From Escherichia phage vb_EcoM-VR5: a stretch of 64,000 nt of DNA. Shown here piece by piece: positions 7,420-38,264 of this stretch (the first letter of the stretch is position 1; every line of letters begins with the position of its first letter). The position numbers and the translations under genes were made by a program. The notes under the pieces were generated by a model. It searched no databases and had not been told where the DNA came from. It was given only the letters and a program-made list of their open reading frames with translations. The stretch lies in sequence record NC_028881.1; one strand, given 5' to 3'.

Positions 7420-7454
7420 GGACCATTATACTCTGGTCCCAAGAGTTTGTAAAC
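7420..7454 (-). promoter_or_regulatory. early sigma70-type promoter inside a stem-loop (PeSL-like cassette), approximate coordinates
   Basis: RNA sense GTTTACA-N17-TATAAT; -10 box flanked by inverted repeat GGACCA/TGGTCC; SD GAGGAAA and ATG of 7053..7382 follow. Confidence 0.65.
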
Positions 7455-7654
7455 TATTTTTGTGCTAATGCACCTTTCCAGCCTTCATACATCATTCCGG
7501 CTGAAAGTAACAAAGCGCCTGAACAGCTTGAGTGTTTGTGATTCCAAAACCAATTCAGAAAAACTTCGTCATCAATACCTTGAGCTATCATATTTTCAAA
7601 GAACTGACGACGAGCTTCGGCAATACGTTGTGACAGTAAAGATTGTGGATTCAT
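7454..7654 (-). CDS. hypothetical small protein
   Basis: Track ORF 7454..7747 trimmed to internal ATG (MNPQSLLSQRIAEARRQ...) preceded by SD GAGGAAAA; 66 aa. Confidence 0.35.
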   Translation of the reverse strand: MNPQSLLSQRIAEARRQFFENMIAQGIDDEVFLNWFWNHKHSSCSGALLLSAGMMYEGWKGALAQK

Positions 7655-7661
7655 ATTTTCC

Positions 7662-7955
7662 TCAGCTATAACGATAACATTCGTTTGATTTACGTTTTGC
7701 AACTCGATGAGAAGTATTGTAATCAGGTTCATCGTCGTTGTAAACATCTTTTTTCAGCTTTCTCACTTCTTTACGAAGCTGACGATTCATTTCATTCTTA
7801 ACTTCGGAATCAACACCACCCATACGTTTCCACTTATCAGAACGGAAGATATTCTCTTCAACTTGTTCCTGACTTACACCGTCCGGTGCTTTACGACGTC
7901 CTGAATAACAAAAATCTTTTACAGACAATTCTTTACGACGAATAGTTTTACCCAT
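7662..7955 (-). CDS. hypothetical basic protein
   Basis: 97 aa, Lys/Arg-rich (RKLKKDV, RVAKRKS). Confidence 0.4.
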   Translation of the reverse strand: MGKTIRRKELSVKDFCYSGRRKAPDGVSQEQVEENIFRSDKWKRMGGVDSEVKNEMNRQLRKEVRKLKKDVYNDDEPDYNTSHRVAKRKSNECYRYS

Positions 7956-7957
7956 AG

Positions 7958-8212
7958 TTACCTCAGCAGTTTGTATCCAATAAGATTTTTGATATACTGA
8001 ATATCTTTGATATCCAAATCCAACTTAAGGTCTTTCAGACGTTCAGCCAGAGTAAGAAATGTTACTCGCTTCCAATTTTTAACAGGGCAGCAATAAGTCT
8101 TAGGCCCATTTGCAATTTCAATATTTTTATCTGTGATGGTGAGAAAAATCAGGCGCTCATCATCAAGGTTCAGGGTGATGACATTTTTCATTGCATGTAA
8201 TTTCAGGCTCAT
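7958..8212 (-). CDS. hypothetical protein
   Basis: 84 aa ORF co-oriented with neighbours. Confidence 0.4.
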   Translation of the reverse strand: MSLKLHAMKNVITLNLDDERLIFLTITDKNIEIANGPKTYCCPVKNWKRVTFLTLAERLKDLKLDLDIKDIQYIKNLIGYKLLR

Positions 8213-8391
8213 GATTTAATTTCCTTTGCTACTGAACAAAACACAGAGCGGTCACACACCATCAACGGGGCATCAGGCCAATTCAAAGGTTGATACCAGA
8301 CATCCAGACTTGATACTTTAGTTACTTGAACAGGATAGCCGTTTACTGAAAAATACTGGTCAACTTTAATTTCTTTATCTTGAATAGTCAT
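8209..8391 (-). CDS. hypothetical small protein
   Basis: 60 aa ORF immediately downstream of a promoter cassette. Confidence 0.35.
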   Translation of the reverse strand: MTIQDKEIKVDQYFSVNGYPVQVTKVSSLDVWYQPLNWPDAPLMVCDRSVFCSVAKEIKS

Positions 8392-8404
8392 AATGTTCTC
8401 CTCA

Positions 8405-8450
8405 TGTGTTGATAGGATAGACTATAACACACAAGGAGAGGAAGTAAACA
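8405..8450 (-). promoter_or_regulatory. early promoter cassette, divergent PeSL-like copy (approximate)
   Basis: RNA sense GTTTACT-N16-TATAGT followed by CTATCCTATCAACAC; window shows ttgataggatagactataaca, a variant of the conserved 20-mer. Confidence 0.55.
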
Positions 8451-8768
8451 CTAATCTTCAATTAAATCTCGGTCATAACCAAGTTCAATCAAAAGTGTCT
8501 TAAAAGAAGGAATATTTTCTATTTTCTTATTATCAACAAAGATAACAGGATAACGTATAGCTAAGCTCTTGAAGCCGGCACGTTTGGCCAATGATACTAT
8601 AAGAGGCTTGTCATATACTGCACCTGACGGCGTCTGGTTAATCACAGGATAGAAAGTATATTGAATGGAAAGGGAATTTAGGAGCGATAGAACTGCAATG
8701 CACCCTGGACAGCGCATGACTGTCTCAGGGATACCGTAGATTTCGATTTTAGTTGACTTTTGGTCCAC
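8451..8768 (-). CDS. glutaredoxin/NrdH-like redoxin (CPGC active site); start uncertain
   Basis: C-terminal ~100 aa of track ORF 8451..8993 reads KIEIYGIPETVMRCPGC..., a thioredoxin-fold beta1 strand plus CxxC motif. Upstream gene ends at 8749, so start is probably GTG at 8768 (SD GGAG) or ATG at 8813. Confidence 0.45.
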   Translation of the reverse strand: MDQKSTKIEIYGIPETVMRCPGCIAVLSLLNSLSIQYTFYPVINQTPSGAVYDKPLIVSLAKRAGFKSLAIRYPVIFVDNKKIENIPSFKTLLIELGYDRDLIED

Positions 8769-9048
8769 AGGAAATAACTCCTTGGTAGTCCCAAGTTTTG
8801 ATAACTTCTTCATCATCAATGGTTTTATACGGGACATAAACCTGAATAAGGAAACCGGTGTCATCGAAAGAGAAATAAACCGTTGGTTTGATTCCATGAA
8901 TCTCAGATAGAGCATAGATATCTTTAAGGTCTTCTTCTTTATCAGCAAAGAATTCCGGGTTAAGGTCGCAGTCATGGAAGTACCAGTCATCACCGAACTT
9001 GTCCCATTCGGTCCAATTGGTAGCTACATATTCTTCGAAACGTTTCAT
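8749..9048 (-). CDS. hypothetical acidic Trp-rich protein
   Basis: 99 aa ORF (MKRFEEYVATNWTEWDKFGDDWYFHD...). Confidence 0.4.
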   Translation of the reverse strand: MKRFEEYVATNWTEWDKFGDDWYFHDCDLNPEFFADKEEDLKDIYALSEIHGIKPTVYFSFDDTGFLIQVYVPYKTIDDEEVIKTWDYQGVISCGPKVN

Positions 9049-9260
9049 TCTTTCACCTTCAGCATTTTTGCGATAACACTATGAATAGCCTGGATACGTT
9101 TGTTGAACTCAGACTCTTCAAGACCCTTTTCAGTACTCAGCCATCCGATGATAACAAACAGCAATCCGAACGGAATAGCCAGGATTAAAAGGCACACGAT
9201 AAACAAGACCAGTGTAATGTTAGCCAGAATATCAGAAGCAGCATTACGAAAATTATTCAT
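9045..9260 (-). CDS. small membrane protein
   Basis: 71 aa with one strongly hydrophobic segment (ITLVLFIVCLLILAIPFGLLFVIIGWL). Confidence 0.4.
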   Translation of the reverse strand: MNNFRNAASDILANITLVLFIVCLLILAIPFGLLFVIIGWLSTEKGLEESEFNKRIQAIHSVIAKMLKVKE

Positions 9261-9381
9261 AGGATAACCCAGGTATTATTGACAACAAATAACCATAGAG
9301 CTGGATACTCTACACCCATACGACGGATAATATCATTCATAGCTTCAGTTAGAGCATAGAACGTGTAACCATAAAAATTAA

Positions 9382-9855
9382 TCATTTAAGCGATTTCCTC
9401 AGTTGTTTTTTAAATGAATCAACCATTTGTTTCTTAGTGTCGGATTCATTATAAGTCATTCCATGTGAAAGCATTTCAGCAATCATTTCTTCCTTACCTA
9501 ATCTACTGAACTCTTTGGTTTTATCAGGAACGAAATTCGGGTGGATATTATTTTCAGTGTAATCGGTTTTCAGATAGACTAGCAAATTCTCTAACCATTC
9601 GAGGTAGTCAACGTTTTGACCTTTCAAACCAGAACGGTTGAACTTATGCTTCATTTGTCCCTCTGCAGCATTGCACAGGTTACATAGTAAACCACGAACC
9701 TTACCAGCTTTTGGCCCGTTCAATTCATGGTCGTGGTCAAGGTGGTTACTTTGAACATCAGGGTTTAATTCACGTTTACAAATCAAACACTTACCATCCT
9801 GTGCATCATAAAGTTTTTGTTTTTCTTCTTTGTATAATTTGCCAGTCAACAACAT
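9382..9855 (-). CDS. 49: endonuclease VII (Holliday junction resolvase) gp49
   Basis: 157 aa; MLLTGKLYKEEKQK...CLICKRELNPDVQ..NHLDHDHELNGPKAGKVRGLLCNLCNAAEGQMKHKF... matches T4 gp49 (157 aa) including the zinc-binding Cys and HNH-like core. Confidence 0.95.
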   Translation of the reverse strand: MLLTGKLYKEEKQKLYDAQDGKCLICKRELNPDVQSNHLDHDHELNGPKAGKVRGLLCNLCNAAEGQMKHKFNRSGLKGQNVDYLEWLENLLVYLKTDYTENNIHPNFVPDKTKEFSRLGKEEMIAEMLSHGMTYNESDTKKQMVDSFKKQLRKSLK

Positions 9856-9860
9856 AATAA

Positions 9861-9885
9861 ACCCTTACCTGTATTAGATAAGGGT
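9861..9885 (-). promoter_or_regulatory. leader hairpin sequestering the gene 49 ribosome-binding site (approximate)
   Basis: RNA sense ACCCUUAUCUAAUACAGGUAAGGGU places the SD AGGUAAGGG in the 3' arm of a stem directly before the ATG; a late-promoter-like AATAAATA sits just upstream. T4 gene 49 is known to use RBS sequestration in its long transcript. Confidence 0.45.
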
Positions 9886-10356
9886 ATTTATTAAATATTA
9901 TAAAACGAGCGATGCAACCGTTTAAATTGTCGAATCATCTTTTTAGTAGGATGAGTATATAATCCTACGCAGGTGACCATAAACCGGTCAGTAGGACTTC
10001 CTTTGATAAGAAGTTTCCAGACCTTACCACCATTTAACTTTTCGGTATAGACTAATACAGTTTTCATTAGAACGCCTTATCAGAAAAGCGAAGTTGAGCT
10101 TCAAGCCAATGGATATAATCAGCCGCGGCAAAAATTAAATCAGATTCTTCATCAGATAACTTACGGGAATCCGACAGCTCGTAAAGAGAATGTTCAATCA
10201 GACGACCTTTATGTCGGCCAACTTCAATTTTGGTACTCATACCCAAACTCCGTATCGATTAATTCATTGTTTGAAGGTTCATTATACTCTATTTCGGAAT
10301 CGTTGTAAACCGGTTCCTCTGGCTCGGTAGTTTCCCACCGAGCGACATACCATGGC

Positions 10357-10665
10357 TTAACGGTCACACCACCAACTACTTACTTCAAAATCGGGTTCAC
10401 CGTCTTCCCAGAACCAGGGGCCAACCGGATGCCAATCGCCATGCTTATCTTCTTCATATTCTTCAGATTCAAGTCCAACGTATTGCCATTGGACTTCATA
10501 AGCAATGTCGCCGATTACAACAGTGTTCTCGCCATACGGGTTAGCCACAACAAAGTCAATACCTTCTGCTTTAGCCAACCAAACCATGTATTCATATAGC
10601 TTATATTCTAGGTCATCTTCGGTACCGTCACCTAGAAAAATGGTCTGTTCGTTTAATTCAATCAT
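10357..10665 (-). CDS. hypothetical acidic protein
   Basis: 102 aa ORF, Trp/Glu-rich. Confidence 0.4.
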   Translation of the reverse strand: MIELNEQTIFLGDGTEDDLEYKLYEYMVWLAKAEGIDFVVANPYGENTVVIGDIAYEVQWQYVGLESEEYEEDKHGDWHPVGPWFWEDGEPDFEVSSWWCDR

Positions 10666-10850
10666 AATTCCACCATAAATTCAAATAGCTGGTCACGTAC
10701 ACAAGTATCAGTCCAACCCCATTCGTTGGCTTCTTCTTTTAACCAATCCGGGAGATTTGCCAATACGATTTCTTTACTAGGCGCAGGAGTATCAAACTCT
10801 CTTGCAAACTCTCTTGCGCAGGTTTCATAAGCTGTATCAAATTCGGTCAT
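10662..10850 (-). CDS. hypothetical small protein
   Basis: 62 aa ORF overlapping the downstream gene start. Confidence 0.35.
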   Translation of the reverse strand: MTEFDTAYETCAREFAREFDTPAPSKEIVLANLPDWLKEEANEWGWTDTCVRDQLFEFMVEL

Positions 10851-11010
10851 TTAAAGTTCCAGAATGAAGCACCAACCAGAAATAAAGGCCAACAAATCAT
10901 AGACGTCAGCCACCAACAAAAATCACCTACACCGAAATCATCTAATTTAGCTAGGGTCTTAGCATAACCAATACCGATGATAATATACAAAACACCCAAC
11001 ATTAATTCAA

Positions 11011-11274
11011 TCATTTGAAATATTCTCGCAGTTCAGTGAATCCACCAATATGACTTCCGTCAGGAGCAAACACTTGTGGCATAGTCAAGCCAATTTGGGA
11101 TTCGCGACCAAGTTTAGCCAGGAGTTGAGCAATCTTCTCATCATCAAACACGCCTTTTTCTGGCATAACGTTCACGAACTCGTAAGGTTGTTTCTTAACA
11201 TCCAAAAAACGTTTAGCATTATCACAGAAAACACAACGATGAATATTTGAATCATAACCATAAATTTTAAACAT
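11011..11274 (-). CDS. nrdC: thioredoxin NrdC
   Basis: 87 aa; MFKIYGYDSNIHRCVFCDNAKR...QVFAPDGSHIGGFTELREYFK is collinear with T4 NrdC (87 aa) with a C-x-x-C active site. Confidence 0.92.
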   Translation of the reverse strand: MFKIYGYDSNIHRCVFCDNAKRFLDVKKQPYEFVNVMPEKGVFDDEKIAQLLAKLGRESQIGLTMPQVFAPDGSHIGGFTELREYFK

Positions 11275-13961: not shown

Positions 13962-14807
13962 TTAATCCTTAAGAAGATTTAGAATATCAAGATATTTTTG
14001 ACGTTCGGCCTTGGCTTTAGCATTCAGACCGGAAAGTCGGAAAATCTCATCGTCTTGGCGCTGGATTTCAACATTCAAGCAAGTAATCAAATTAGTAAAA
14101 TACTCAAGCTGGGTTTGGTGTTTCTCATTGCTACGCACTGGTACAGGTTCCGCTTTAGGAGCTTGTTCTGAATGATTCTTAACTTCATTGCCTGGCCTAA
14201 TAAGTTTAATACGCCAACCTGTATTGGTATGAACATTATCGAAGGTAAGAATACCACTACGTTCAAGTTCGGTCAACGCCAATCGGAGATGGAATTTCCA
14301 GTTGTCGTATTGACATCCACTAAAAGTGGAAGTAAGATACTCGTTTTCATTACCTGGTTGGTTAACAATATTAAAGATAATCCAATCACCAGAGCCATTG
14401 GTCTTAAATGGCATTTGCTTATCTTGGCCTGAAGCCATACGAGCACCAAGTGCTAGTAAACGACGTTGGTTGGTACGAAGGTCTTTAACAACTTCATCAA
14501 ATGTCATCGCCGGGATTAAACGACCATAGAGGTCATAGCCTTTGTTATAATTTTTAAGAATAATTTTGGCGTTAGCACGAGACAACATACCTGCCCTGTG
14601 AAGAGATTTCATGACTCGGTCTTCTAACGTAAACAAACCTTTAGTCTTGTCAAAGATTTTAGTGAATTCATCTACAGCAATACAAACTTCAAACTTTTCC
14701 CACATCATGGCCAAAACCTTTTCAACCACTTCTTTATTCAGTGGAATACGACCAAATTTAATAACTTTTTTAACTTCAGAACGAATTTGATTAATTGCCT
14801 GTGACAT
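13962..14807 (-). CDS. hypothetical protein (281 aa)
   Basis: Starts MSQAINQ... behind a leader nearly identical to that of 7053..7382; no assignable domain. Confidence 0.5.
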   Translation of the reverse strand: MSQAINQIRSEVKKVIKFGRIPLNKEVVEKVLAMMWEKFEVCIAVDEFTKIFDKTKGLFTLEDRVMKSLHRAGMLSRANAKIILKNYNKGYDLYGRLIPAMTFDEVVKDLRTNQRRLLALGARMASGQDKQMPFKTNGSGDWIIFNIVNQPGNENEYLTSTFSGCQYDNWKFHLRLALTELERSGILTFDNVHTNTGWRIKLIRPGNEVKNHSEQAPKAEPVPVRSNEKHQTQLEYFTNLITCLNVEIQRQDDEIFRLSGLNAKAKAERQKYLDILNLLKD

Positions 14808-14844
14808 AATAATTTCCTCAGTAAGTAATTAAGAACCTAGAACC

Positions 14845-14870
14845 ATTATACCATCCTTGGTATAAAGCGT
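14845..14870 (-). promoter_or_regulatory. middle (MotA-type) promoter-like element, approximate
   Basis: RNA sense aaaCGCTTTA (MotA-box-like, one mismatch to TGCTTtA) - 12 nt - TATAATGGTTCTAGG; overlaps the stop of the upstream gene. Confidence 0.5.
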
Positions 14871-15395
14871 TTATGCGAGAACCGTCTTTAAACGCTCTTC
14901 AAATTTCTGAAGCAGAGCTTGGCGTTCAGCTCGTTGTGATTTGTACTGCTCGATACGTCCTGAAGTGAGGGCGTACTGTTCGTTTACTGATTCCCGCATA
15001 AATTCAGGAATTTCTTTACAAGCTTTGATTTCGTCAAACTTATCAATAACCGCTTGTTCCTCGGCAATCAGATTATCGAAATAAGCGATATCTGATTTAA
15101 CGTTTGCCAGGTCAGATTCGGTAGGCATTAAACGTTTGTTACGTTCAGATTGATAAGCTTGGTTGGTTTCACGACTCCAGTGAAGAGTACGTTTTTTGTT
15201 AGTATTTTTATAGAGCTCTACAATACCTACTGAATCGATGATAGCAATCCAGTTCCAACGGCTTTTGTAAATCTCTCCTCCAGATACGGTAATCTCATTT
15301 CCACAAGCAACATCGTTAAAGAACTTGCTTTGTTTTTCAGATTTAAAATTACCGTTATTAAAATTAATCAGTGAAAAAATATCTTTAGCGTTCAT
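14871..15395 (-). CDS. hypothetical protein (174 aa)
   Basis: ORF directly downstream of the PeSL at 15402-15450; Asn/Lys-rich N-terminus. Confidence 0.5.
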   Translation of the reverse strand: MNAKDIFSLINFNNGNFKSEKQSKFFNDVACGNEITVSGGEIYKSRWNWIAIIDSVGIVELYKNTNKKRTLHWSRETNQAYQSERNKRLMPTESDLANVKSDIAYFDNLIAEEQAVIDKFDEIKACKEIPEFMRESVNEQYALTSGRIEQYKSQRAERQALLQKFEERLKTVLA

Positions 15396-15401
15396 GTTAA
15401 C

Positions 15402-15450
15402 CTCCAGTAGTTGATAGGTCTATAGTATCATTCCTACTGGAGATGTAAAC
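15402..15450 (-). promoter_or_regulatory. PeSL-like promoter/stem-loop cassette, approximate
   Basis: Conserved 20-mer ttgataggtctatagtatca between perfect 9-bp inverted repeat ctccagtag/ctactggag, then gtaaac; RNA sense GTTTAC-N17-TGaTACTAT (extended -10). Confidence 0.7.
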
Positions 15451-15452
15451 AA

Positions 15453-15794
15453 CTAATAGAAACTTTTTTCGCCGGCTTGTCCACTAAACCAGGCTGATTG
15501 GGTATTAGGTTTCCGTTGTTGCTCAATACGGGTACGATATTCTTTTCTTATGGCACAGAGGTCATCCTGGAAGTCGGCTGCCAACTTTACCTGCTTGCGG
15601 TCTAGATTTATTAAGGCCTGAGTCTTAGCTGCCAAGGCCAGTCTCTTGTAGTCTCCTTCTTCACAATCGGTTTTATAAACTCTACTAGCGTATCCATCGA
15701 TAAATTCTTTATCATAGTCTTTGATAGACTGTTCCATGGCATTAGAGTACTTCAACTCTGCTTTTATAAGGTCATAACTAAATTGTTCAAACAT
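15453..15794 (-). CDS. hypothetical protein
   Basis: 113 aa ORF downstream of the ATPase gene. Confidence 0.45.
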   Translation of the reverse strand: MFEQFSYDLIKAELKYSNAMEQSIKDYDKEFIDGYASRVYKTDCEEGDYKRLALAAKTQALINLDRKQVKLAADFQDDLCAIRKEYRTRIEQQRKPNTQSAWFSGQAGEKSFY

Positions 15795-16867: not shown

Positions 16868-16889
16868 AAAAAAGGAACCCGAAGGTTCC
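16868..16889 (-). terminator. rho-independent terminator (approximate)
   Basis: RNA sense GGAACC-UUCG-GGUUCC followed by UUUUUUGGG, directly after the stop of 16896..17906. Confidence 0.65.
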
Positions 16890-20164: not shown

Positions 20165-20190
20165 AAAAAAGGTCCCACCGAAGTGAGACC
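20165..20190 (-). terminator. rho-independent terminator (approximate)
   Basis: RNA sense GGUCUCAC-UUCG-GUGGGACC followed by UUUUUUCG, after the stop of 20196..20582. Confidence 0.6.
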
Positions 20191-21237: not shown

Positions 21238-21810
21238 TCAACTCGTTATTTCTATCCAATGCTTCCTGCATAATGACACGTAAGAATCGTTGCCACCTAT
21301 AGAAACTTGGTCGCCATCCTTAATTGCGATACCATTTTGGATACGAGCTGTCATAGTAGCCTTACGTCCACAATGGCACACACCTTTGTACTCAACGAGT
21401 TTATCTGCTGTAGCTAATAATTCAGCAGAGCCAGGAAACAGTTTACCCTGAAAATCAGTTCTTAGACCGTAACACATGACCGGTATATTATAATTATCTA
21501 CTATCTTTGCCAATTGTTTTATTTGCAAAGGTTCTAAGAACTGTGCTTCATCCACAAATACGCAGTGGATATCTTTTTGAGATTCAGCCCAACGATAGAA
21601 CTCGTATAGGTCCATGTCTGGAGTCACTGCATTAGCCTCTTGGCTAATCCCTATACGAGACGAAATTCTATGGCTTGATTCTCTATTATCTATCGCAGGC
21701 TTTAAAAGGAGTACACCCATACCACGTTCTTTATAGTTATGGGCAGCCGTTAGCAATGAAGAGGTCTTCCCAGAATTCATCGCCGCATAGTGAAACATCA
21801 AACTTGCCAT
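21238..21810 (-). CDS. tk: thymidine kinase
   Basis: 190 aa; P-loop MNSGKTSSLL, VFVDEAQF, C-terminal zinc ligands CHCGRKA...SLCRKH; T4 Tk-like size and position. Confidence 0.93.
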   Translation of the reverse strand: MASLMFHYAAMNSGKTSSLLTAAHNYKERGMGVLLLKPAIDNRESSHRISSRIGISQEANAVTPDMDLYEFYRWAESQKDIHCVFVDEAQFLEPLQIKQLAKIVDNYNIPVMCYGLRTDFQGKLFPGSAELLATADKLVEYKGVCHCGRKATMTARIQNGIAIKDGDQVSIGGNDSYVSLCRKHWIEITS

Positions 21811-22535
21811 TTAGATACAATTCCTCTATAAGAACAATCGGGATAACCTTTACTCAAGGCTATCTTTTTAAACATATACGCCGAGGGTTTATTAGATTCT
21901 TCCCATAGTATTTTCAATTCATCATAATATTTCCAAGTCTCATTTCTAATAGGAGAAGGTTTTCCTTTCATTGCGCCCTGTTTACCAAACATAGGATTCT
22001 TTTCACCCTTTTTAGAATCGCTCATGTTTTTAATAGTAGCACATGAATGCTTAAAGCCTTTTAATTTTTTAGAAGCGAGACCTATTTTAGCCTTATGTTC
22101 ATCCGTAAATCCTATTCTATTCGAATAGTGGTTTGCGCCTTTATTAGAAGTGGTATATTTAGAAGCTTCTATTCTCGCAGCACTCCATTTAACTCCTTTT
22201 TTGGACCTGGACATTTTACATTTAGTTAGCAATGATAACTTAGTTCCTTTCTTTTTGCCGCGTCCGCCATCGGCAAAATTTAAAGAATGCTTTCCATATT
22301 TTAATTTAGCTTTTTCTACTAAAGGAACTTCAGCATCGTAAGCTTCATCTTCAGTTTCAAAGAATTTTAATATACGGGTTTTATAAGGGTGCTTTTTGCA
22401 AATATTTTTAACAACAGTGCCACTTCCAAAATACCCATCAGAAAGATTATCAGTAGAATGTTTTCCTACGTAATAATATTTTGCCTTGAGGGTTTTTATT
22501 ACAGTTAAATAATTATAATGGAATTCCTTTACCAT
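21798..22535 (-). CDS. GIY-YIG-type homing endonuclease (Seg-like), free-standing
   Basis: 245 aa; N-terminal NYLTVIKTLKAKYYYVGKHS...GYFGSG resembles the GIY-YIG module; Lys-rich NUMOD-like repeats in the C-terminal half; 3' end overlaps the tk start. Confidence 0.55.
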   Translation of the reverse strand: MVKEFHYNYLTVIKTLKAKYYYVGKHSTDNLSDGYFGSGTVVKNICKKHPYKTRILKFFETEDEAYDAEVPLVEKAKLKYGKHSLNFADGGRGKKKGTKLSLLTKCKMSRSKKGVKWSAARIEASKYTTSNKGANHYSNRIGFTDEHKAKIGLASKKLKGFKHSCATIKNMSDSKKGEKNPMFGKQGAMKGKPSPIRNETWKYYDELKILWEESNKPSAYMFKKIALSKGYPDCSYRGIVSKWQV

Positions 22536-24074: not shown

Positions 24075-24533
24075 TTAAAGATAGATTACTTTCGTGCTAG
24101 TTTTACCTTCTAAACGTTTAGAGTTAACAAATGCCATACGACATTTTAATGAATATCCTTTATCAGGATGTTTACGATCTACAGTCATACCTAACCATAA
24201 GGTTTTATCGGTAATCTCGAGACGCAGTGGACGATACACTTTACCTGGGACAATTTCAGATTCTACATCAGGCAGAGGTTCCTGGATTAAAAATTCATGG
24301 ATTTCTTTAACATGGTTATGGAGTTGCTTGAATAAAGCAAAAACGTATTTTTCGTCAATTTCACGTTGGATAGCACGGTCCAATAGGTGATTAGAGTACT
24401 TAATAAAGAAAGCTGGGACTCCACTCTTAATGGCGGCTTTTTTGATGGATGTATTCAGTTCACGAAATTCGGTTTCGAACTGACGACGTAATTTGTTGCG
24501 GCGGATGAATACTTCTGAATTAATTTCTGACAT
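24075..24533 (-). CDS. regB: RegB site-specific endoribonuclease
   Basis: 152 aa; EVFIRRNKLRRQFETEFRELN...HLLDRAIQREIDEKYVF... is collinear with T4 RegB (153 aa). Confidence 0.85.
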   Translation of the reverse strand: MSEINSEVFIRRNKLRRQFETEFRELNTSIKKAAIKSGVPAFFIKYSNHLLDRAIQREIDEKYVFALFKQLHNHVKEIHEFLIQEPLPDVESEIVPGKVYRPLRLEITDKTLWLGMTVDRKHPDKGYSLKCRMAFVNSKRLEGKTSTKVIYL

Positions 24534-24540
24534 TTTGTTT

Positions 24541-24590
24541 CTCCTGTAGTTGATAGGTTTATAGTATCATGCCTACAGGAGATGTAAACT
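24541..24590 (-). promoter_or_regulatory. PeSL-like promoter/stem-loop cassette upstream of regB, approximate
   Basis: ttgataggtttatagtatca between perfect inverted repeat ctcctgtag/ctacaggag, then gtaaac. Confidence 0.7.
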
Positions 24591-24593
24591 GCT

Positions 24594-24803
24594 TTATTCT
24601 TGGAATGGTGTGAGTTTTCCAGCTATCGAACAAATTTCTACCATTGCAGGATAAAACTCTTTCACTTGTTCAAGGCGCTGGACAGCGTACCGCATTTCGC
24701 CTTCTTCAAGACAAGCCACTTGGTCATCGAGCAAATATTTGTGGTAACCAGTACAGGCTTCACTAATGATACGTTGGAATTCTTGCAAACTTTCAATTTT
24801 CAC
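24594..24803 (-). CDS. hypothetical small protein (T4 vs.3 position)
   Basis: 69 aa ORF. Confidence 0.35.
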   Translation of the reverse strand: MKIESLQEFQRIISEACTGYHKYLLDDQVACLEEGEMRYAVQRLEQVKEFYPAMVEICSIAGKLTPFQE

Positions 24804-26226: not shown

Positions 26227-26643
26227 TTATGCATAAATCGCCTTACTGTAATATTTATACCAGGTAGGGCGTTGTGCAATTTTTTCGTCTAAACGGGCCT
26301 GTGATATAACGATAGAAGCTTCATGGGGGATATAATCACCACGGAATTCCTGAGGAATATCACTAATATCCTGGACTGTAGTATCCTTGATATTAAACCC
26401 ACGTTTTAGACATTCGTCTATAAGCTCAATTTGACGTTTACGTAAGAACTCGAGCTTATCGTAAAAGAATGTAACATGACCTGTGCCAAGGATAAAAGTA
26501 GGACTGATTTTAAAATCACGAACCCGTTTACCATTAGCAACATGCTTACGAACTGCACCAAAAACACGTGGTAATTCACGATATTCGGCCATTAAGTGTT
26601 GGTCAGCCAATTCAGATACTAAAGTAAGGTTGATACGAGTCAT
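26227..26643 (-). CDS. denV: endonuclease V (pyrimidine-dimer DNA glycosylase) DenV
   Basis: 138 aa; [53 protein letters not shown]... is essentially identical to my recollection of T4 DenV. Confidence 0.95.
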
Positions 26644-26649
26644 TTTAAT

Positions 26650-26699
26650 CTCCTGTAGTTGATAGGTCTATAGTATCATACCTACAGGAGATGTAAACT
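26650..26699 (-). promoter_or_regulatory. PeSL-like promoter/stem-loop cassette upstream of denV, approximate
   Basis: Consensus 20-mer ttgataggtctatagtatca between perfect inverted repeat ctcctgtag/ctacaggag, then gtaaac. Confidence 0.7.
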
Positions 26700-26707
26700 A
26701 CTATGAA

Positions 26708-27007
26708 CTAGAAAGAACCAGAGCCTTTAATTGTGTTCTGGCGTCCTTTATTTTCTACTTCAGAGTGGTCGATTTCGTAAGCTTGTGCTACACCAAAGGA
26801 TTTTTTAATTTTGGCCAACGACCCTTTAGAAATAACAATGTTAAAGGTATTGCCTTTAGAAAAATCTACCAAATCTACAGTAACGCCGTTATTGGTTAAA
26901 CTATTAACAATAGCATCAACATATTGTTGGTCTAAAGTTCCCTGAACGCCGATTTGAAAAGCTTTAGGTGCTTTAGCTTCAGTGATAAATTCTTGATATG
27001 TTTTCAT
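26708..27007 (-). CDS. ipII: internal protein with capsid-targeting sequence (IPII-like)
   Basis: 99 aa; N-terminal MKTYQEFITEA is the T4 capsid-targeting sequence; size and position (between denV and ipIII) match T4 IPII. Confidence 0.6.
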   Translation of the reverse strand: MKTYQEFITEAKAPKAFQIGVQGTLDQQYVDAIVNSLTNNGVTVDLVDFSKGNTFNIVISKGSLAKIKKSFGVAQAYEIDHSEVENKGRQNTIKGSGSF

Positions 27008-27140: not shown

Positions 27141-27710
27141 TTAACGGGCTGCATTAGCAACAGCGTAAGCGTACTGAATATTAGCGTCTTTAAACTTACC
27201 TTTAGAGGTATCTATTTCTGCCTTAAAGCCGCCTTTAGTCATAACATCGGCAAATTCTTTACGGAAAGCCATTGCATCAAGACCTTTCCATGATGATTTA
27301 TGCTTGGCAAATTCAAGACCTGCGAAGTTGACAGCTTTAGCCAATTTATTATCAATAGCCCATTTACCGGCTTTAGGCACAAACTTCGGGCCCTTCTGTT
27401 TAGAGAACAGTTTTAAATTCCAGCGGCGAAGGTCCGAATCAGCTTTAACAAATTCGGAGTCTAAATTACTAGCAACAACATCGTCAATATGAGCGAATTT
27501 AAGTCCGTCAACTTCAATATTTAGGTCGTTACGCCAGCGAAGTCCTTCCCAGGCGAAAGCTTTAAAGTCAGAAGCTTTTGTAGCTAAGTACCGTTCAATA
27601 GGAGCTGTTTTAGCGTCAAAACCGTTTCCTCGGTAGGTCCACTCATCTTTGTTAATGCCTTGGGCTTTTCCTACAGAAGCTTCGGCGATAAATTCTTTAT
27701 ATGTTTTCAT
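27141..27710 (-). CDS. ipIII: internal protein with capsid-targeting sequence (IPIII-like)
   Basis: 189 aa; N-terminal MKTYKEFIAEA; size and position (immediately upstream of e) match T4 IPIII (193 aa). Confidence 0.6.
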   Translation of the reverse strand: MKTYKEFIAEASVGKAQGINKDEWTYRGNGFDAKTAPIERYLATKASDFKAFAWEGLRWRNDLNIEVDGLKFAHIDDVVASNLDSEFVKADSDLRRWNLKLFSKQKGPKFVPKAGKWAIDNKLAKAVNFAGLEFAKHKSSWKGLDAMAFRKEFADVMTKGGFKAEIDTSKGKFKDANIQYAYAVANAAR

Positions 27711-30534: not shown

Positions 30535-30575
30535 TTGATAGGTCTATAGTATCACACCTATAGACCTTGTACACT
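30535..30575 (-). promoter_or_regulatory. PeSL-like promoter/stem-loop cassette, approximate
   Basis: Consensus 20-mer ttgataggtctatagtatca with perfect inverted repeat ggtctatag/ctatagacc; -35-like GTGTACA in RNA sense. Confidence 0.6.
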
Positions 30576-34401: not shown

Positions 34402-34995
34402 TTACTTAAGTGAATTGATGTAGTCTTCGATATCAGCTGAAGTCGTATCCATTCCAACTTGAGGGCCTTTAAACGTTTCTACACGCATCAGGGTATCTTC
34501 AATATCAATCTTAGTCAGTGCAGCGATTTCAACAACATCGTCAGCAGTAGCAATACCTAATGCAGCCATATTACGAGTTTCACGGATGTATTCAAGCTTA
34601 ACTGCTAGTTCTTGTCGAGAGTCATCAAGTTCCTTAACCTTAAGCTTGATTTCATTACGCATTTCGATATAATCGTCGGCTTTCTTACGAAGTTGAGTAG
34701 CTGTACGACGATAAAGGAGGCCGAGTTTAGCATGTACCTGGACATCGGCACCTTCAGCAATCAATTTACGGATTTCACGTTCTTTAGAACTAGCCAGTTG
34801 GTCCTTTTCGTTAGCGAGTTCACGAATACGTTTTTCTTCACTTACAGACTTAACGTGAGCAGTCTGGAGCTCGGTAATTTTATCAATTAGAGTAGAAGCA
34901 GCTTTAGTGTATTGGTCTTCAATTGACAGGTTCTGGGCCATTGCGGTACCAAGTTTAGAGCGGATGAATTCAACGATTTTCTTTAAAGTGTTCAT
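34402..34995 (-). CDS. coiled-coil protein, possibly PspA/IM30-like
   Basis: 197 aa, charged heptad-like sequence throughout; N-terminus loosely resembles PspA. Weak call. Confidence 0.35.
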
Positions 34996-35022
34996 AGTAT
35001 TTCCTTCAGTGGTTGTTTCGTT

Positions 35023-35063
35023 TTGATAGGTCTATAGTATCACGTTTAAAGGTGATGTAAACT
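35023..35063 (-). promoter_or_regulatory. PeSL-like promoter/stem-loop cassette, approximate
   Basis: Consensus 20-mer ttgataggtctatagtatca, atcac/gtgat inverted repeat, then gtaaac. Confidence 0.65.
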
Positions 35064-35105
35064 GCTTTGTGAAATTATTTTTGGTCTAACCCCCTAAAAG
35101 GAGAC

Positions 35106-35126
35106 CGAAGTCTCCTTTCATTATTT
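35106..35126 (-). terminator. rho-independent terminator (approximate)
   Basis: RNA sense AGGAGAC-UUCG-GUCUCCU followed by UUUUAGGGGG, after the stop of 35154..35708. Confidence 0.55.
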
Positions 35127-35153
35127 ACAGGTCTTTTCGAACTGGGCAGTGAA

Positions 35154-35708
35154 TCAGTTCTTGTAGAACCGGAATGGGTTTATGTGGAAGGCTAACATGG
35201 CTTTATGGATTTTACGAGACAAAAGACTCTTAAGCTTCCAGCCACAGTACACGCGAAGGTAAAATGTGATTCCACCAACCTTAAGATAAGGAACTGAAGC
35301 AAATACACCCCAGGCATCATCATTCCACATCCATAACCAACCATGGTGAGCTTTATCAGGAGAACCAGATTCTACATCAGGATTACCGCGATAATGGAAT
35401 TCTGAACTACAATCACGTCCTAGTTTATGGTAAGCAAAGTTATAAGCTTTATTTCGCCATAGCCAAGCTACTCTCTGGAGATAAACACCACCAGGCATTT
35501 TCCTGATTTTAGCCCAACGTTTAATATGACCTTTGTCGCCGTCAATTGGATTATCGTATGTCATCATCCAATCAAAGCCATAAGGCAATTTACCGGTCTT
35601 TTTATTGTAGAAAGGAACTACAAAAGGCGCAAGGATAACGGCTAGAACCATAGAGATAAAATCTAGTGGGACCAACAGAATCCAACTCAAATATTTTAAA
35701 AGTTTCAT
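35154..35708 (-). CDS. membrane-anchored Trp-rich protein, apparently late-expressed
   Basis: 184 aa; N-terminal hydrophobic helix; preceded by TATAAATA late-promoter motif and SD AGGAAAT. Confidence 0.45.
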   Translation of the reverse strand: MKLLKYLSWILLVPLDFISMVLAVILAPFVVPFYNKKTGKLPYGFDWMMTYDNPIDGDKGHIKRWAKIRKMPGGVYLQRVAWLWRNKAYNFAYHKLGRDCSSEFHYRGNPDVESGSPDKAHHGWLWMWNDDAWGVFASVPYLKVGGITFYLRVYCGWKLKSLLSRKIHKAMLAFHINPFRFYKN

Positions 35709-35734
35709 ATTATTTCCTAAGTTAGTTTACTACA

Positions 35735-35742
35735 TATTTATA
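35735..35742 (-). promoter_or_regulatory. late promoter motif TATAAATA (minus strand), approximate
   Basis: Window tatttata = TATAAATA in RNA sense, about 25 nt upstream of the ATG at 35708. Confidence 0.5.
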
Positions 35743-35743
35743 C

Positions 35744-35771
35744 AAAAAAGGCCCAACCTTTCGGAAGGGCC
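35744..35771 (-). terminator. terminator-like hairpin downstream of the tRNA cluster (approximate)
   Basis: RNA sense GGCCCUUCC-GAAA-GGUUGGGCC (GNRA loop, internal UU mismatches) followed by UUUUUUG. Confidence 0.45.
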
Positions 35772-35941
35772 TTTAACCTAGGGTAACCTTGTCGGGGTTC
35801 CACCTGCTAGGCAAGTGTTCGGTGCGCCGTTTCAGCTGTGATATAAGGGGGCATTAACAAAACATAAAGATTTATTAATGCCAGTCCTTAAACAGAGAAC
35901 TTCAGTCCGACGACTTACCGGTAGCGACCCGGTTTCTTGTT

Positions 35942-36017
35942 TGGTCGAGACAGTAGGGATCGAACCTACGACCTAGGACTTAGAAGGTCCTTGCTCTTCC
36001 TTCTGAGCTATGCCTCG
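35942..36017 (-). tRNA. tRNA-Arg (anticodon TCT, reads AGA); approximate coordinates
   Basis: Hand-folded: acceptor CGAGGCA/TGTCTCG, D arm GCTC/GAGC, anticodon stem AGGAC/GTCCT with loop CTTCTAA, T arm GTAGG-TTCGATC-CCTAC, encoded ACCA end. Confidence 0.75.
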
Positions 36018-36023
36018 TGTTTG

Positions 36024-36150
36024 TTCATAGCGGGGTGGACTCGAACCACCAATATTAAGTCACTCATGCTCCAAGCATGCTAGGGCACTTACCCCGGACG
36101 GAATCGAACCGCATCTACAATACCTATCGCCATGATAATTTAAAATAAGT
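36024..36150 (-). other. tRNA-like fragments / possible small stable RNA between the two tRNAs (approximate)
   Basis: Two T-arm-like motifs (RNA GGUGG-UUCGAGU-CCACC and GCGG-UUCGAUU-CCGU) only about 62-66 nt apart, plus hairpin CAUGCU-UGG-AGCAUG; no full cloverleaf could be folded by hand. Confidence 0.3.
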
Positions 36151-36151
36151 T

Positions 36152-36225
36152 TGGTGGCCCTGGGTGGAATCGAACCACCATCCAGCGATTATGAGTCGCT
36201 CGCTTGACCGTCCAGCTACAGGGCC
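36152..36225 (-). tRNA. tRNA with CAT anticodon (Met, or Ile2-type reading AUA as in T4); approximate coordinates
   Basis: Hand-folded: acceptor GGCCCTG/CAGGGCC, anticodon stem AGCGA/TCGCT with loop CTCATAA, T arm GGTGG-TTCGATT-CCACC, encoded ACCA end. Confidence 0.7.
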
Positions 36226-36303
36226 TTAATTCTATTATGAAAGGCTCTTTGAGGGAAGAACCTTTGGTAATAGAGGGTACTTATTAATAATAACACATAA
36301 CTC

Positions 36304-36774
36304 TTAAAGCATATTAAGTGCTTTAACTTTCGGGATTTGGATTTCTTCTTCGATGATGTATAATTTTACCCACGAAACTACGCGCATAAAATCACTATCA
36401 TATTCCACTGGCTCACCCAGCAATTCCTGGAGAGAACACATTAATTCAAATTCCTGGCCATTGTCACCATCAACCAGATTTTCAATACAAAGTGTTTTGT
36501 TAATGAAGTCAGGAGTTAATTGACCGGATTTTACACCAGATTCAATGTGTGCGATAATCAAGTGCTTAACCACATCCCATTCTGAATTACCACATTTATT
36601 GCGGTTATTACAATGAGAGCCTTGAAAAAGTTCCAGGATATATTTGTACTGTTGGATTTCTTGTTCTTCTACACCAAATATTGTCTGGGTTTTGTAGTTG
36701 TCACCGTCATTTTCCCAGGTTTCAATTTCAATCACATAACCTTTAGGGATGGTTTGTCCGAATTTAATTTCCAT
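36304..36774 (-). CDS. hypothetical acidic protein (156 aa)
   Basis: ORF upstream of the tRNA cluster; Cys/His pairs in HCNNRNKCGNSEWD. Confidence 0.45.
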   Translation of the reverse strand: MEIKFGQTIPKGYVIEIETWENDGDNYKTQTIFGVEEQEIQQYKYILELFQGSHCNNRNKCGNSEWDVVKHLIIAHIESGVKSGQLTPDFINKTLCIENLVDGDNGQEFELMCSLQELLGEPVEYDSDFMRVVSWVKLYIIEEEIQIPKVKALNML

Positions 36775-37064
36775 TAAAATATACTCGCATATTGATGTTT
36801 GATTATATCAAGACCTAAAGGATTTTTAAAAATATCATAATCCTCTGGACCTGTTTCAGTTTCAATAAAGAAATTAAAATTCACAGTATTGAATTTACGG
36901 TCTTCCTTAACCAGTTTAACATTAGAATGACTACGACCTATTTCCAAACGTTCAACTTCAAAACAAGTTAAGATGCCATAATCATCAATCAACTGCTTTG
37001 CGGCATCTTGGTCTGATTTATACCCGTTATTAGCCTTGTCACCTATCGTAGCATAAAGAATCAT
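36774..37064 (-). CDS. hypothetical protein
   Basis: 96 aa ORF with stop/start overlap with neighbours. Confidence 0.4.
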   Translation of the reverse strand: MILYATIGDKANNGYKSDQDAAKQLIDDYGILTCFEVERLEIGRSHSNVKLVKEDRKFNTVNFNFFIETETGPEDYDIFKNPLGLDIIKHQYASIF

Positions 37065-37066
37065 AA

Positions 37067-37447
37067 TTAACCTTCATCAACAATAGTATGGGTATTAGCA
37101 TTAACAATCTGCCACCAGTCAAAACGGTTAGAACCATATTGAGGCTTATTCTCGTTTTCTTTAATGATATCACGCAGTTCATCTTCGGTAGCGGCTTTTG
37201 CGATTAGGTCTGCATAACCGCCACGGGGATAATAGCTATCGCCAGCAAAGAGTAAAAAGTTTGTTTTGATATTCTTGAATTCTTCAAGAGTAATAACCGT
37301 TCCAGATGGTTGAACAATATCTACGTAACTATATCCTAATTTCTGGGCTTCATTTACTGCTTCAAGCAGGGTGTCATGGGCCCATCCGATTTGACAATCC
37401 GGTTTTTCAGATGGATTTGCTTGATAATCTGCGTACACTTTATACAT
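37067..37447 (-). CDS. hypothetical protein
   Basis: Track ORF 37067..37495 trimmed to internal ATG (MYKVYADYQANPSEKPD...), 126 aa. Confidence 0.4.
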   Translation of the reverse strand: MYKVYADYQANPSEKPDCQIGWAHDTLLEAVNEAQKLGYSYVDIVQPSGTVITLEEFKNIKTNFLLFAGDSYYPRGGYADLIAKAATEDELRDIIKENENKPQYGSNRFDWWQIVNANTHTIVDEG

Positions 37448-37448
37448 T

Positions 37449-37634
37449 TTACTCACCTTTAGAGATTTTATCCATAACGAAAGAGATTGAACCAATTAAA
37501 AATGCCACTACTAAAGAGATTGTATTCTCGGAAGTTGTAAGCAAATCCAACATGAATCCTGCAAACATGCTAAAACCAAAAGCAGTAATAGCAACAAGCG
37601 CAGTAACATTTCTAATTAATTCACAACGTTTCAT
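37449..37634 (-). CDS. small membrane protein
   Basis: Trimmed to ATG behind leader GGAGAATAAAATGAAA (MKRCELIRNVTALVAITAFGF...); two hydrophobic segments. Confidence 0.4.
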   Translation of the reverse strand: MKRCELIRNVTALVAITAFGFSMFAGFMLDLLTTSENTISLVVAFLIGSISFVMDKISKGE

Positions 37635-37659
37635 TTTATTCTCCAATCACTCATTTGTT

Positions 37660-37701
37660 TTGATAGGGCTATAGTATCACCACTAGAGCCCATTGTAAAC
37701 A
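37660..37701 (-). promoter_or_regulatory. PeSL-like promoter/stem-loop cassette, approximate
   Basis: ttgatagggctatagtatca (1 mismatch) with inverted repeat gggctatagt/actagagccc, then gtaaac. Confidence 0.6.
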
Positions 37702-37702
37702 A

Positions 37703-37975
37703 TTATTTTAGATAAATTGCATATTTTTTATAGCCAGCTGTCTCGTGGCGCAACCCTTTGTCATTAGCAAAGCGTTCAATATTATTAATTTGATTTTGGT
37801 CGAGTTCTGAAATATCAAATACAAAAAAGTTTCGCTTATTGCCTAAAGTTACATGATTAGTCAAATCGATGTTATAGAGATGATTTATATTATCAATCAT
37901 GGCCTTAACAGATTTGCTAATTTTTACTTCTTCATTAAGAATAGATTCAGCGATAAATTCTTGATAGGTTTTCAT
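37703..37975 (-). CDS. internal-protein-like protein with capsid-targeting sequence
   Basis: Trimmed to MKTYQEFIAESILNEE...; N-terminal capsid-targeting sequence; about 90 aa. Confidence 0.5.
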   Translation of the reverse strand: MKTYQEFIAESILNEEVKISKSVKAMIDNINHLYNIDLTNHVTLGNKRNFFVFDISELDQNQINNIERFANDKGLRHETAGYKKYAIYLK

Positions 37976-37976
37976 T

Positions 37977-38201
37977 TTATTCTGCACCAGCAGCTTTCAA
38001 AAGTTTTTTAAGATTGGCTGTGCCCTGAGCAGAAAATGTGACCTTGCCACCTTTTTCACTGATAGAACCAACCAATTTAGCAAGTTTATCATTAGGAATT
38101 TTTTTAAAATCAGCCAATGTTCCATCAAAGGTTTTTGAAACAAAAGGCAGTTCGTCTTCGTGTCTTTTAGCTTCGGTAATAAATTCTTGATAAGTTTTCA
38201 T
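37977..38201 (-). CDS. internal protein with capsid-targeting sequence (IPI-like position)
   Basis: 74 aa; MKTYQEFITEAKRHEDELPF...; lies just upstream of 57B where T4 carries ipI. Confidence 0.5.
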   Translation of the reverse strand: MKTYQEFITEAKRHEDELPFVSKTFDGTLADFKKIPNDKLAKLVGSISEKGGKVTFSAQGTANLKKLLKAAGAE

Positions 38202-38223
38202 TTTAAATCCTTAAGTAGTTGTT

Positions 38224-38264
38224 TTGATAGGTCTATAGTATCATATTTATAAATGCTGTAAACA
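38224..38264 (-). promoter_or_regulatory. PeSL-like promoter cassette with overlapping late-promoter-like TATAAATA, approximate
   Basis: Consensus 20-mer ttgataggtctatagtatca followed by atatttataaat (TATAAATA in RNA sense), then gtaaac. Confidence 0.6.

Follow-up and report, generated by a model that had tools for sequence, protein, structure and literature searches.

Which element punctuates the early region of Escherichia phage vb_EcoM-VR5, and what might it do there? In a window of 64,000 nucleotides (nt) of this genome (NC_028881.1), whose positions serve as coordinates throughout, the same short module recurs on the minus strand in front of early genes, and an earlier note, made from the letters alone, had read it as a mobile cassette combining a promoter with a stem-loop. 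Comparison with related phages suggests, with a probability of about 0.8, that the repeats are early promoters of a T4-type, JS98-like phage in the form typical of its genus, Dhakavirus, and that they fall within the known PeSL class of early-promoter and stem-loop cassettes (Arbiol et al. 2010, PMC2839356; Comeau et al. 2014, PMC4122927). They are not a new kind of element. The mobile-cassette reading of the earlier note is supported, since all the sequence-level features that define the class are found and four junctions with the relatives vB_EcoM_ESCO10 and JS98 lie in cassettes.

The repeat and its anatomy

Megablast of positions 14-22 kb gave vB_EcoM_ESCO10 (95.8%), vB_EcoM_FB (93.7%) and JS98 (88%) as best matches, all of them Dhakavirus. 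Following the T4-style annotation of JS98, window positions 1-41.6 kb are the minus-strand early/middle region, in which gp45 ... gp55, nrdH, 49, the nrdC cluster, tk, vs, regB, denV, internal proteins, e, tRNAs, 57B/57A, 1 and 3 succeed one another, and plus-strand late genes come after. The GenBank product names of ESCO10 (OM386655) were left unused because they are mis-registered with respect to the genes across the whole locus; 'DNA topoisomerase II medium subunit', for example, stands on a 63-aa open reading frame (ORF), and 'putative baseplate hub' on the regB orthologue. An Rfam scan of 7-39 kb returned two tRNAs only, with no family covering the cassettes.

The 20-mer TTGATAGGTCTATAGTATCA at the core of the repeat has five exact copies in the window (15411, 26659, 30535, 35023 and 38224), the number given in the earlier note, and four further copies with 1-3 mismatches (16809, 20116, 24550 and 37660). 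All nine are on the minus strand, where shuffles lead one to expect 0.02, and the plus-strand late region, inspected as an orientation check, holds no cassette copy. The copies sit in intergenic gaps 5' of early genes, including regB, denV, nrdC.8, nrdC.10, e.6, trna.4, 55.x and internal-protein genes. The block AGACCTATCAA occurs six times in the window, every time inside a cassette, and CCTATCAA has ten minus-strand copies, of which nine fall in cassettes and one in coding sequence. Both AGACCTATCAA and TGATACTAT are all but confined to these promoters.

A generic sigma70 consensus scan showed no enrichment over shuffles (52 found vs 45.8 expected) and cannot discriminate cassette sites, so a family-specific pattern was used instead. 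An unbiased scan for nothing more than a GTTTAC-like -35 (at most one mismatch), a spacer of 16-18 nt and a TAnnnT -10 yielded 13 intergenic minus-strand promoters in the window. Nine of them bear the block (38263, 37700, 35062, 30574, 26698, 24589, 20155, 16848 and 15450) and 8449 alone has a partial core (TGTTATAGTCTATCCTATCAA); 27794, which the earlier note had overlooked, is a TGATACTAT promoter lacking the AGACCTATCAA block, and 12871 and 7454 are plain GTTTAC-N18-TATAAT promoters from which the block is absent. Over six 20-kb regB regions, a generic scan for early promoter, Shine-Dalgarno sequence (SD) and ATG gave 57 matches in gene sense vs 1 on the opposite strand.

The repeat is thus real and far above chance, but the figure of at least 13 copies first proposed is an over-count: nine of the 13 sites then listed have the full core, one has a partial core, two are plain early promoters and one is a middle promoter. 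Twelve of those 13 sites, as well as 27794, possess the -35, the spacer of 17+/-1 nt and the TAnnnT hexamer of an early promoter, ten of them with TGn. The remaining site, 14845, has no -35; it carries the MotA box AAACGCTTTA (aaCGCTTTA)-N12-TATAAT, which departs by one mismatch (T to C) from the MotA consensus (a/t)(a/t)(a/t)TGCTTtA, centred near -30 and followed by N11-13 and TAtaAT with no -35. It is, as judged by these motifs, a MotA-dependent middle promoter and a non-member of the cassette family.

The layout described in the earlier note holds, with GTTTAC-N17/18-TGaTACTAT-AGACCTATCAA standing 5' of SD and ATG. Read in RNA sense, the full order is an A/T-rich upstream region, the -35 GTTTAC, N17, TGa-TACTAT, the discriminator AGACCT, ATCAA, a leader, GGAG and ATG, with UP-like A/T-rich tracts of AAAATAATT or AAAAA type at -40 to -55 in most copies. 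Host sigma70 RNA polymerase would bind the UP-like region, the -35, the 17-nt spacer and the extended -10, and transcription is predicted from the spacing to begin about 7 nt past the -10, at the A of ATCAA. The near-invariant AGACCT-ATCAA would then comprise the discriminator and the first transcribed bases.

Two kinds of leader can be distinguished. In type A (...TATCAA-CTAC(A/T)GGAG-...), no more than about 15 nt separate the SD from the predicted start; 15450, 24589 and 26698 are of this type, and 20155 and 8449 conform to it more loosely. In type B the leader is longer and A/C-rich, TATCAAAACAA...GAGTGA..GGAGAATAAAATG, and there is a common upstream sequence, AAAATAATTTCA(A/C)AAAG (38263, 35062, 30574, 37700 and 16848). 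Two type B leaders carry a short upstream ATG without a preceding SD (37654-37631 and 16803-16789, minus strand): ATGAGTGATTGGAGAATAAAATGA forms a mini-ORF of 7 codons, its stop overlapping the main ATG, and ATGAGTGAAGGATAA forms one of 4 codons. Paralogous cassettes share 20-26 bp of exact identity and are 41-70% identical over 94 nt, while their flanks are mutually unrelated.

Embedded hairpins and upstream terminators

For each window promoter, the stretch from the -35 to the ATG was folded and given a z-score. Clear hairpins (z < -3) were obtained at 15450, 24589, 26698 and 8449 (z -4.6 to -6.0) and at 30574 (z -3.4), weaker ones at 37700 (z -2.2), 7454 and 20155, and nothing significant in the folding of 38263, 35062, 16848 and 12871. 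The perfect inverted repeat of 5-9 bp that the earlier note called usual is therefore a property of some promoters and missing from others; a hairpin is embedded in about half of the copies, with its 5' arm in the promoter spacer between -35 and -10. Two geometries occur. In the first (regB, denV, nrdC.8 and 55.6), the part of the spacer directly 3' of the -35 pairs with the GGAG SD region, as in CTCCTGTAG/CTACAGGAG; in the second (P30574 and P37700), the spacer pairs with the -10/discriminator, as in GGTCTATAG/CTATAGACC. In the P37700 stem (GGGCTCTAG/CTATAGCCC), the block has C in place of A, and the spacer correspondingly has G in place of T.

Because the 5' arm precedes the predicted start, the cassette's own transcript would lack it, and only read-through RNA could form the hairpin. 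For geometry 1, the predicted probability that the region from SD to AUG is unpaired is 0.48-0.84 in the own transcript vs 0.07-0.37 in read-through RNA, the denV promoter (P26698) having 0.58 vs 0.07. Such sequestration of the SD, which depends on where the start is placed, is predicted for 26698, 24589, 15450 and 8449, and weakly for 20155.

The three window cassettes that are preceded by a terminator (16848, 20155 and 35062) are those without a strong hairpin; 38263 and 12871 have neither an embedded hairpin nor an upstream UUCG terminator. All three window terminators (16874-16889, 20171-20190 and 35097-35118) have a UUCG tetraloop (GGAACCTTCGGGTTCC, GGTCTCACTTCGGTGGGACC and GGAGACTTCGGTCTCC), a design that recurs 5' of promoters in other T4-like lineages. 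Over all fetched DNA, 24% of 124 de-replicated promoter clusters have z < -3, and the 40 clusters with z < -2 divide into 9 with spacer-SD pairing, 18 with spacer-(-10/discriminator) pairing, 7 with both and 6 others. When spacers were combined with downstream segments at constant composition, the mean was -11.6 kcal/mol with the own segment vs -7.7 with swapped ones (z = -13.6), and the own partner ranked best in 21/71 cases. The arms covary across five genus-level groups, which answers favourably the check for stem covariation that the earlier note had proposed. Moreover, an embedded hairpin was present in 1/14 promoters with a UUCG terminator at most 80 nt upstream vs 33/57 without one (Fisher p = 7e-4), in a set of clusters that includes distant orthologues and whose effective size is smaller than stated. 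Despite this reduced sample the direction is clear: the hairpin is selected and appears to substitute for a terminator. Its function would then be tied to RNA arriving from upstream, and the near-exclusivity points to an equivalent role for the embedded hairpins.

The hairpin may accordingly insulate each cassette from read-through transcription. A hairpin of the SD type would hide the ribosome-binding site together with the RegB target, and translation would proceed only from the cassette's own, briefly active early promoter, while the -10/discriminator type might work through attenuation or through processing of the RNA. Where the hairpin is lacking, an upstream UUCG-loop intrinsic terminator tends to take its place. 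RegB cleaves GGAG in early SDs, RNA structure protects from this cleavage, and regB needs tight limitation. Translation from its own promoter only is plausible for regB for these reasons, by analogy with known systems.

Relatives and recombination junctions

Exact TTGATAGGTCTATAGTATCA is found 8-12 times per Dhakavirus-size contig in IMG/VR and 12 times in JS98, and it is rare elsewhere; its absence from relatives had been set beforehand, in the earlier note, as a possible refutation, which these counts do not bring about. The GCCC variant of the block has about 3 copies per CC31-like genome and 1-2 in Dhakavirus. In JS98, ESCO10, IME341 and further genomes sequenced independently, cassettes occupy the orthologous positions, and related versions are present in CC31-like phages, whose RegB is 69% identical.

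Loci of regB were taken from 17 contigs, which are JS98-, Marfa-, CC31-, STML-198- and KPV15-like by megablast; the RegB-based locus search gave contigs of these groups only, and T4 itself (Tequatrovirus) is outside the sample. In all five groups the regB promoter reads GTTTAC-N17/18-TAnnnT and embeds a hairpin with z -3.8 or lower, and the arm sequences are unrelated: TTTCTCCTCTTTATG/CATAAAGAGGAGAAA in STML-198, GTGTAGGAGTA/TACTTCTACAC in Marfa, GGGCTAT/ATAGCCC plus TCTCC/GGAGA in CC31, and GGGCCAT/ATGGCCC in KPV15. The denV promoters likewise keep a hairpin while its arms differ, the arms being CTCCTGTAG/CTACAGGAG in the window and JS98, CTCCTGT/ACAGGAG in ESCO10 and TCTCCGTTTG/CAAACGGAGA in CC31-like phages. 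The denV promoter of ESCO10 has a CC31-type TATGAT ACTCTCATACC instead of the Dhakavirus TACTAT AGACCTATCAA (ESCO10 33479 vs compared locus 6962) and retains the Dhakavirus -35 and SD stem, which makes it a mosaic promoter.

At the positions of the block, other genera have a pyrimidine-rich sequence followed by TA and an A/C-rich, CAAAC-like leader (CTTACAC in Marfa-like phages; CTATCAAC or CTCATACC in CC31-like phages), in keeping with the C at -3..-1 and the extra consensus published for T4 early promoters, and by this comparison the Dhakavirus block appears unusual solely in its uniformity. Between orthologous promoters of the window and JS98, identity is 95-97% in the -35 and TGn/-10, 92% in the block and 86% in the spacer; as 92% does not exceed 95-97%, the block is no more constrained than the core promoter.

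Indel events were taken from chained blastn high-scoring segment pairs of window positions 1-41.8 kb against ESCO10 and JS98. About 15 indel/replacement events were counted, of which 5 touch a cassette, with 4 junctions inside one. P27794 and the ESCO10 denV promoter are identical upstream through GTTTAC and unrelated beyond it, and the homology of the window denV promoter (P26698) with that of JS98 begins exactly at GTTTAC, the order of denV and the adjacent internal-protein gene differing in this comparison. P35062 equals the JS98 promoter at 42255 from the terminator to TATCAAAAC and continues as the JS98 e.6 leader from ACTGAAGGAAATACTATG; vs JS98, two leaders are in effect joined here with loss of the intervening ~800 bp (orf133 and e.8). 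An extra internal-protein-like ORF (37703-37975, MKTYQEFIAE...) is inserted directly 5' of the boundary between AATT and GTTTAC of P37700. At the nrdC.10 cassette (P16848), a 538-bp insertion in ESCO10 and one of about 260 bp in JS98 lie directly upstream, and JS98 has two tandem cassettes there. Promoter swaps and gene insertions and deletions joined exactly at the -35 or in the leader provide independent comparative support for the PeSL idea, and the cassettes appear to have served as short-homology crossover points for gene insertion, deletion and reordering.

Other variable sites and the internal-protein genes of the region deserve a brief description. A 245-aa ORF with a NUMOD3 motif (homing-endonuclease type; 21798-22535, minus strand), absent from ESCO10 and JS98, forms a 736-bp insertion between tk and tk.2-like genes and has no promoter cassette associated with it. 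At 7649-7661, away from any cassette, about 115 bp present in ESCO10 and JS98 are missing, at the position of JS98 gene 55.4. Four minus-strand ORFs have the T4 internal-protein capsid-targeting start (MKTYQEF... or MKTYKE...), at 37703-37975, 37977-38201, 26708-27007 and 27141-27710, the one at 37703-37975 being window-specific. The motif codons AAA ACC TAT CAA contain the promoter-block 8-mer CCTATCAA (37968), which is probably coincidence and possibly a microhomology.

Known systems and alternative explanations

A PeSL is defined by an A/T-rich region, an early promoter, a stem-loop, an SD and an ATG, and promoter activity, attenuator activity and mini-circle formation have been demonstrated (Arbiol et al. 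2010, PMC2839356). Mini-circles or deletions joined within cassettes were shown for RB49/phi1. Later work added KVP40/nt-1 as well as T4/PST, the latter with TTTACW-N17-TAYWAT as consensus (Comeau et al. 2014, PMC4122927). PeSL-like sequences of JS98 receive no more than a brief mention, which concerns the g43 locus (Arbiol et al. 2010, PMC2839356; Comeau et al. 2014, PMC4122927). The window cassettes have the same intergenic composition of A/T-rich region, early -35 and -10, stem-loop, SD and ATG, and their TACTAT fits TAYWAT. Their stem-loop often lies between -35 and -10 or over the -10, as in RB49/phi1, and elsewhere there is an upstream terminator, as in PST/T4; they are concentrated in variable early regions, with insertion, deletion and swap junctions between close relatives inside them. 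They differ from published PeSLs in that the -35 is GTTTAC (T4 type) and not TTGACA, the stems are not polyG/polyC, one subset uses the SD itself as the 3' arm, and the Dhakavirus copies have the near-invariant discriminator/start block AGACCTATCAA. A literature search for literal motif strings (GACCTATCAA, TGATACTATAG and others) found no phage paper in the searchable literature.

The early 'uber' promoters of T4, with UP, -35, TGn and -10 elements, also have consensus beyond the sigma70 elements, including a C-rich -3..-1 (Hinton 2010, PMC2988021; Nolan et al. 2006, PMC1524935). The window promoters resemble them in the A-rich upstream region, the GTTTAC -35, the TGn-extended -10 with T -12, A -11 and T -7, the extra consensus outside the sigma70 elements and the C-rich -3..-1, and they stand 5' of orthologues of T4 early genes as well as of novel ORFs. 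Unlike in T4, their -15..+5 segment is genus-specific and much more uniform, and the -10 is mostly TACTAT and not TATAAT. A further parallel is provided by the T4 genes e, soc, 49 and I-TevI, in which a leader hairpin sequesters the SD and a late promoter lies inside its 5' arm (Uzan and Miller 2010, PMC3014915). In both cases the SD is paired in long transcripts (by prediction in the window), a promoter of the gene's own is located within or after the 5' arm so that its own RNA would be translatable, and the hairpin structure is conserved among relatives. However, the internal promoter of the window cassettes is an early sigma70 promoter and not a late gp55 promoter (TATAAATA), and the predicted effect would be to limit translation to the immediate-early period and not to delay it to late times, which makes the cassettes an analogue and not a member of the gene e type. 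So far, this own-promoter-only logic is on record solely with late promoters, those of e, soc, 49 and I-TevI.

Several observations weigh against reading the cassettes as early promoters of the PeSL class, in addition to the reduced effective sample mentioned above. Canonical intrinsic termination by the embedded hairpins is ruled out, since there is no U-tract after the stems: the 3' arms are followed by TATCAAC or ATTAAAATG, and loops reach 23 nt. G-U pairs make up 58/679 (8.5%) on the sense strand vs 42/656 (6.4%) on the antisense strand, a difference too slight to tell RNA from DNA structure, and the 2.3 kcal/mol by which the sense strand folds better does not settle it. The exact identity of paralogues, only 20-26 bp, is a short stretch for homologous recombination to proceed efficiently. 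Many indels are found elsewhere than at cassettes, among them the 55.4 deletion, the NUMOD3 endonuclease insertion, 10665-10840 and 22724. Finally, the 5 of about 15 events at cassette-bearing junctions compare with an estimated 2-4 under random choice of gene junctions, so that the enrichment of breakpoints at cassettes is suggestive and not decisive. The coincidence of gain and loss breakpoints with cassettes, proposed as a check in the earlier note, is borne out by the four junctions at the -35 or in the leader, whereas enrichment over the gene-junction null is only modest; junction precision is the stronger argument for a role in recombination.

This weak enrichment is also one of the points that favour explaining the conservation by optimisation of promoter and leader only, that is, by a strong 'uber' promoter, start-site selection, promoter escape and an unstructured A/C-rich leader for S1/ribosome loading, with incidental hairpins and no part in recombination. 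T4 early promoters do carry extra consensus, and all the genera compared have a pyrimidine-rich discriminator, TA and a CAAAC-like leader. Such an explanation is nevertheless unlikely, because the covariation of spacer and downstream segment and the exclusivity with terminators show the hairpins to be selected, and because the four junctions fall exactly at cassette edges, including swaps of promoters of the same gene (e.6 in the window vs JS98; denV in ESCO10). The recurrence of identical 20-26-mers within 25 kb could suggest a functionless repeat that arose by recent local duplication or in assembly; this explanation is refuted by the copies at orthologous positions in independently sequenced relatives, the unrelated flanks of paralogous copies and the related versions, with the GCCC variant, in CC31-like genomes, and its probability is negligible.

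It has also to be considered, in line with a secondary idea of the earlier note, that the 20-mer (-15 to +5) is the operator of a phage-encoded or injected DNA-binding factor, stimulating early promoters or causing their shut-off minutes after infection. The mechanism of this shut-off in T4 is described in the literature as not completely understood, the block varies less in Dhakavirus than its counterpart does in other genera (AGACCTATCAA stands in 8 of about 9 JS98 promoters of one region), and it contains a 5-bp dyad, TGATA-N9-TATCA. On the other hand, it covers discriminator and start site within the footprint of RNA polymerase, and outside the promoter register it is never found (AGACCTATCAA is in cassettes in 6/6 cases, CCTATCAA in 9/10, the tenth being coding). 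The half-sites, with 14 bp between their centres, are spaced atypically for a dimer, and the dyad does not covary: TATCAA is kept when TGATA becomes GAGTA or TGTTA, which rules out the dyad as a required dimer operator. Considering also that ESCO10 denV is driven by a promoter with a different -10/discriminator and that conservation of the block among orthologues is no higher than that of the -35 and -10, an operator is very unlikely. A joint reading, in which a dedicated injected or very early phage factor would read the -15..+5 block and set early-promoter strength or shut-off while spacer-SD hairpins would enforce own-promoter-only translation of regB and denV as immediate-early genes, is doubtful. 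Early promoters of the PeSL class, typical of the genus, are the preferred reading; as such, the cassettes offer a precise, easily searchable signature of early promoters for the annotation of Dhakavirus genomes, a group frequently considered for phage therapy, and the covariation of the spacer with SD or discriminator in five T4-like lineages, together with the exclusivity of hairpin and terminator, makes the function of the PeSL stem-loop directly testable. The individual sites are collected in Table 1.

Table 1. Promoter cassettes and related sites of the window, with their elements, downstream genes and pairing.
Feature	Coordinates (strand)	Promoter elements	Start codon and gene	Pairing and terminator	Remarks
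Cassette P38263	38199..38290 (-)	UP-like AAAATAATTTCAAAAAG; -35 38263-38258; TGa-TACTAT -10 38240-35; AGACCT; predicted +1 ~38228	ATG 38201 (74-aa internal-protein-like ORF, MKTYQEF...)	Hairpin absent	A/C-rich leader
Cassette P37700	37632..37730 (-)	GCCC block variant; -35 37700-37695; -10 37676-71	ATG 37634 (trna.4-like, 61 aa)	Spacer GGGCTCTAG with CTATAGCCC	ESCO10 junction between AATT and GTTTAC
Cassette P35062	34993..35118 (-)	-35 35062-57; -10 35039-34	ATG 34995 (e.6)	Embedded hairpin absent; UUCG terminator (35118-35097)	Leader contains junction of ~800-bp deletion vs JS98
Cassette P30574	30506..30600 (-)	-35 GTGTAC; -10 30551-46	ATG 30508	Spacer GGTCTATAG with CTATAGACC, z -3.4	
Cassette P27794	27708..27824 (-)	GTTTAC-N18-TGATACTAT; no AGACCTATCAA block	ATG 27710 (ipIII-like)	Stem CTGTGG/CACAG around -10	
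Cassette P26698 (denV)	26641..26728 (-)			9-bp stem CTCCTGTAG/CTACAGGAG, promoter spacer to SD, z -5.5	At gene-order breakpoint
Cassette P24589 (regB)	24531..24619 (-)			Spacer-SD stem as in P26698, z -5.55	
Cassette P20155	20096..20190 (-)	Block AGACTTATCAA	ATG 20098 (78-aa ORF)	Weak CCTC/GAGG stem only; UUCG terminator (20190-20171, T-run after)	
Cassette P16848	16782..16889 (-)	-10 TAAGAT; block intact	ATG 16784 (nrdC.10)	No hairpin; UUCG terminator (16889-16874, T-run after)	
Cassette P15450 (nrdC.8)	15393..15480 (-)			9-bp stem CTCCAGTAG/CTACTGGAG, spacer to SD, z -4.6	
Cassette P8449 (55.6)	8389..8479 (-)	Partial core TGTTATAGT CTATCCTATCAA		Long spacer-SD stem with G-U pairs, z -6.0	
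Ordinary T4-type early promoter P12871	12812..12901 (-)	GTTTAC-N18-TATAAT; no block	ATG 12814 (nrdC.4)	No significant hairpin	
Ordinary T4-type early promoter P7454	7380..7484 (-)	GTTTAC-N18-TATAAT; no block	ATG 7382 (55.2)	Stem GGGACC/GGTCC around -10	
Predicted MotA-box middle promoter, non-member	14805..14872 (-)	GCTTTA 14868-63, N12, TATAAT 14850-45	5' of nrdC.6		

Two genes listed in Table 1 share a further feature downstream of their promoters. The 55.2-like (7382-7400, minus strand) and nrdC.6-like (14807-14825, minus strand) genes have a near-identical SD/start block, ACTGAGGAAATTATTATGTCACA(A/G)GCAAT, and both proteins start with MSQAI, while the promoters differ in class (early vs MotA-type middle).

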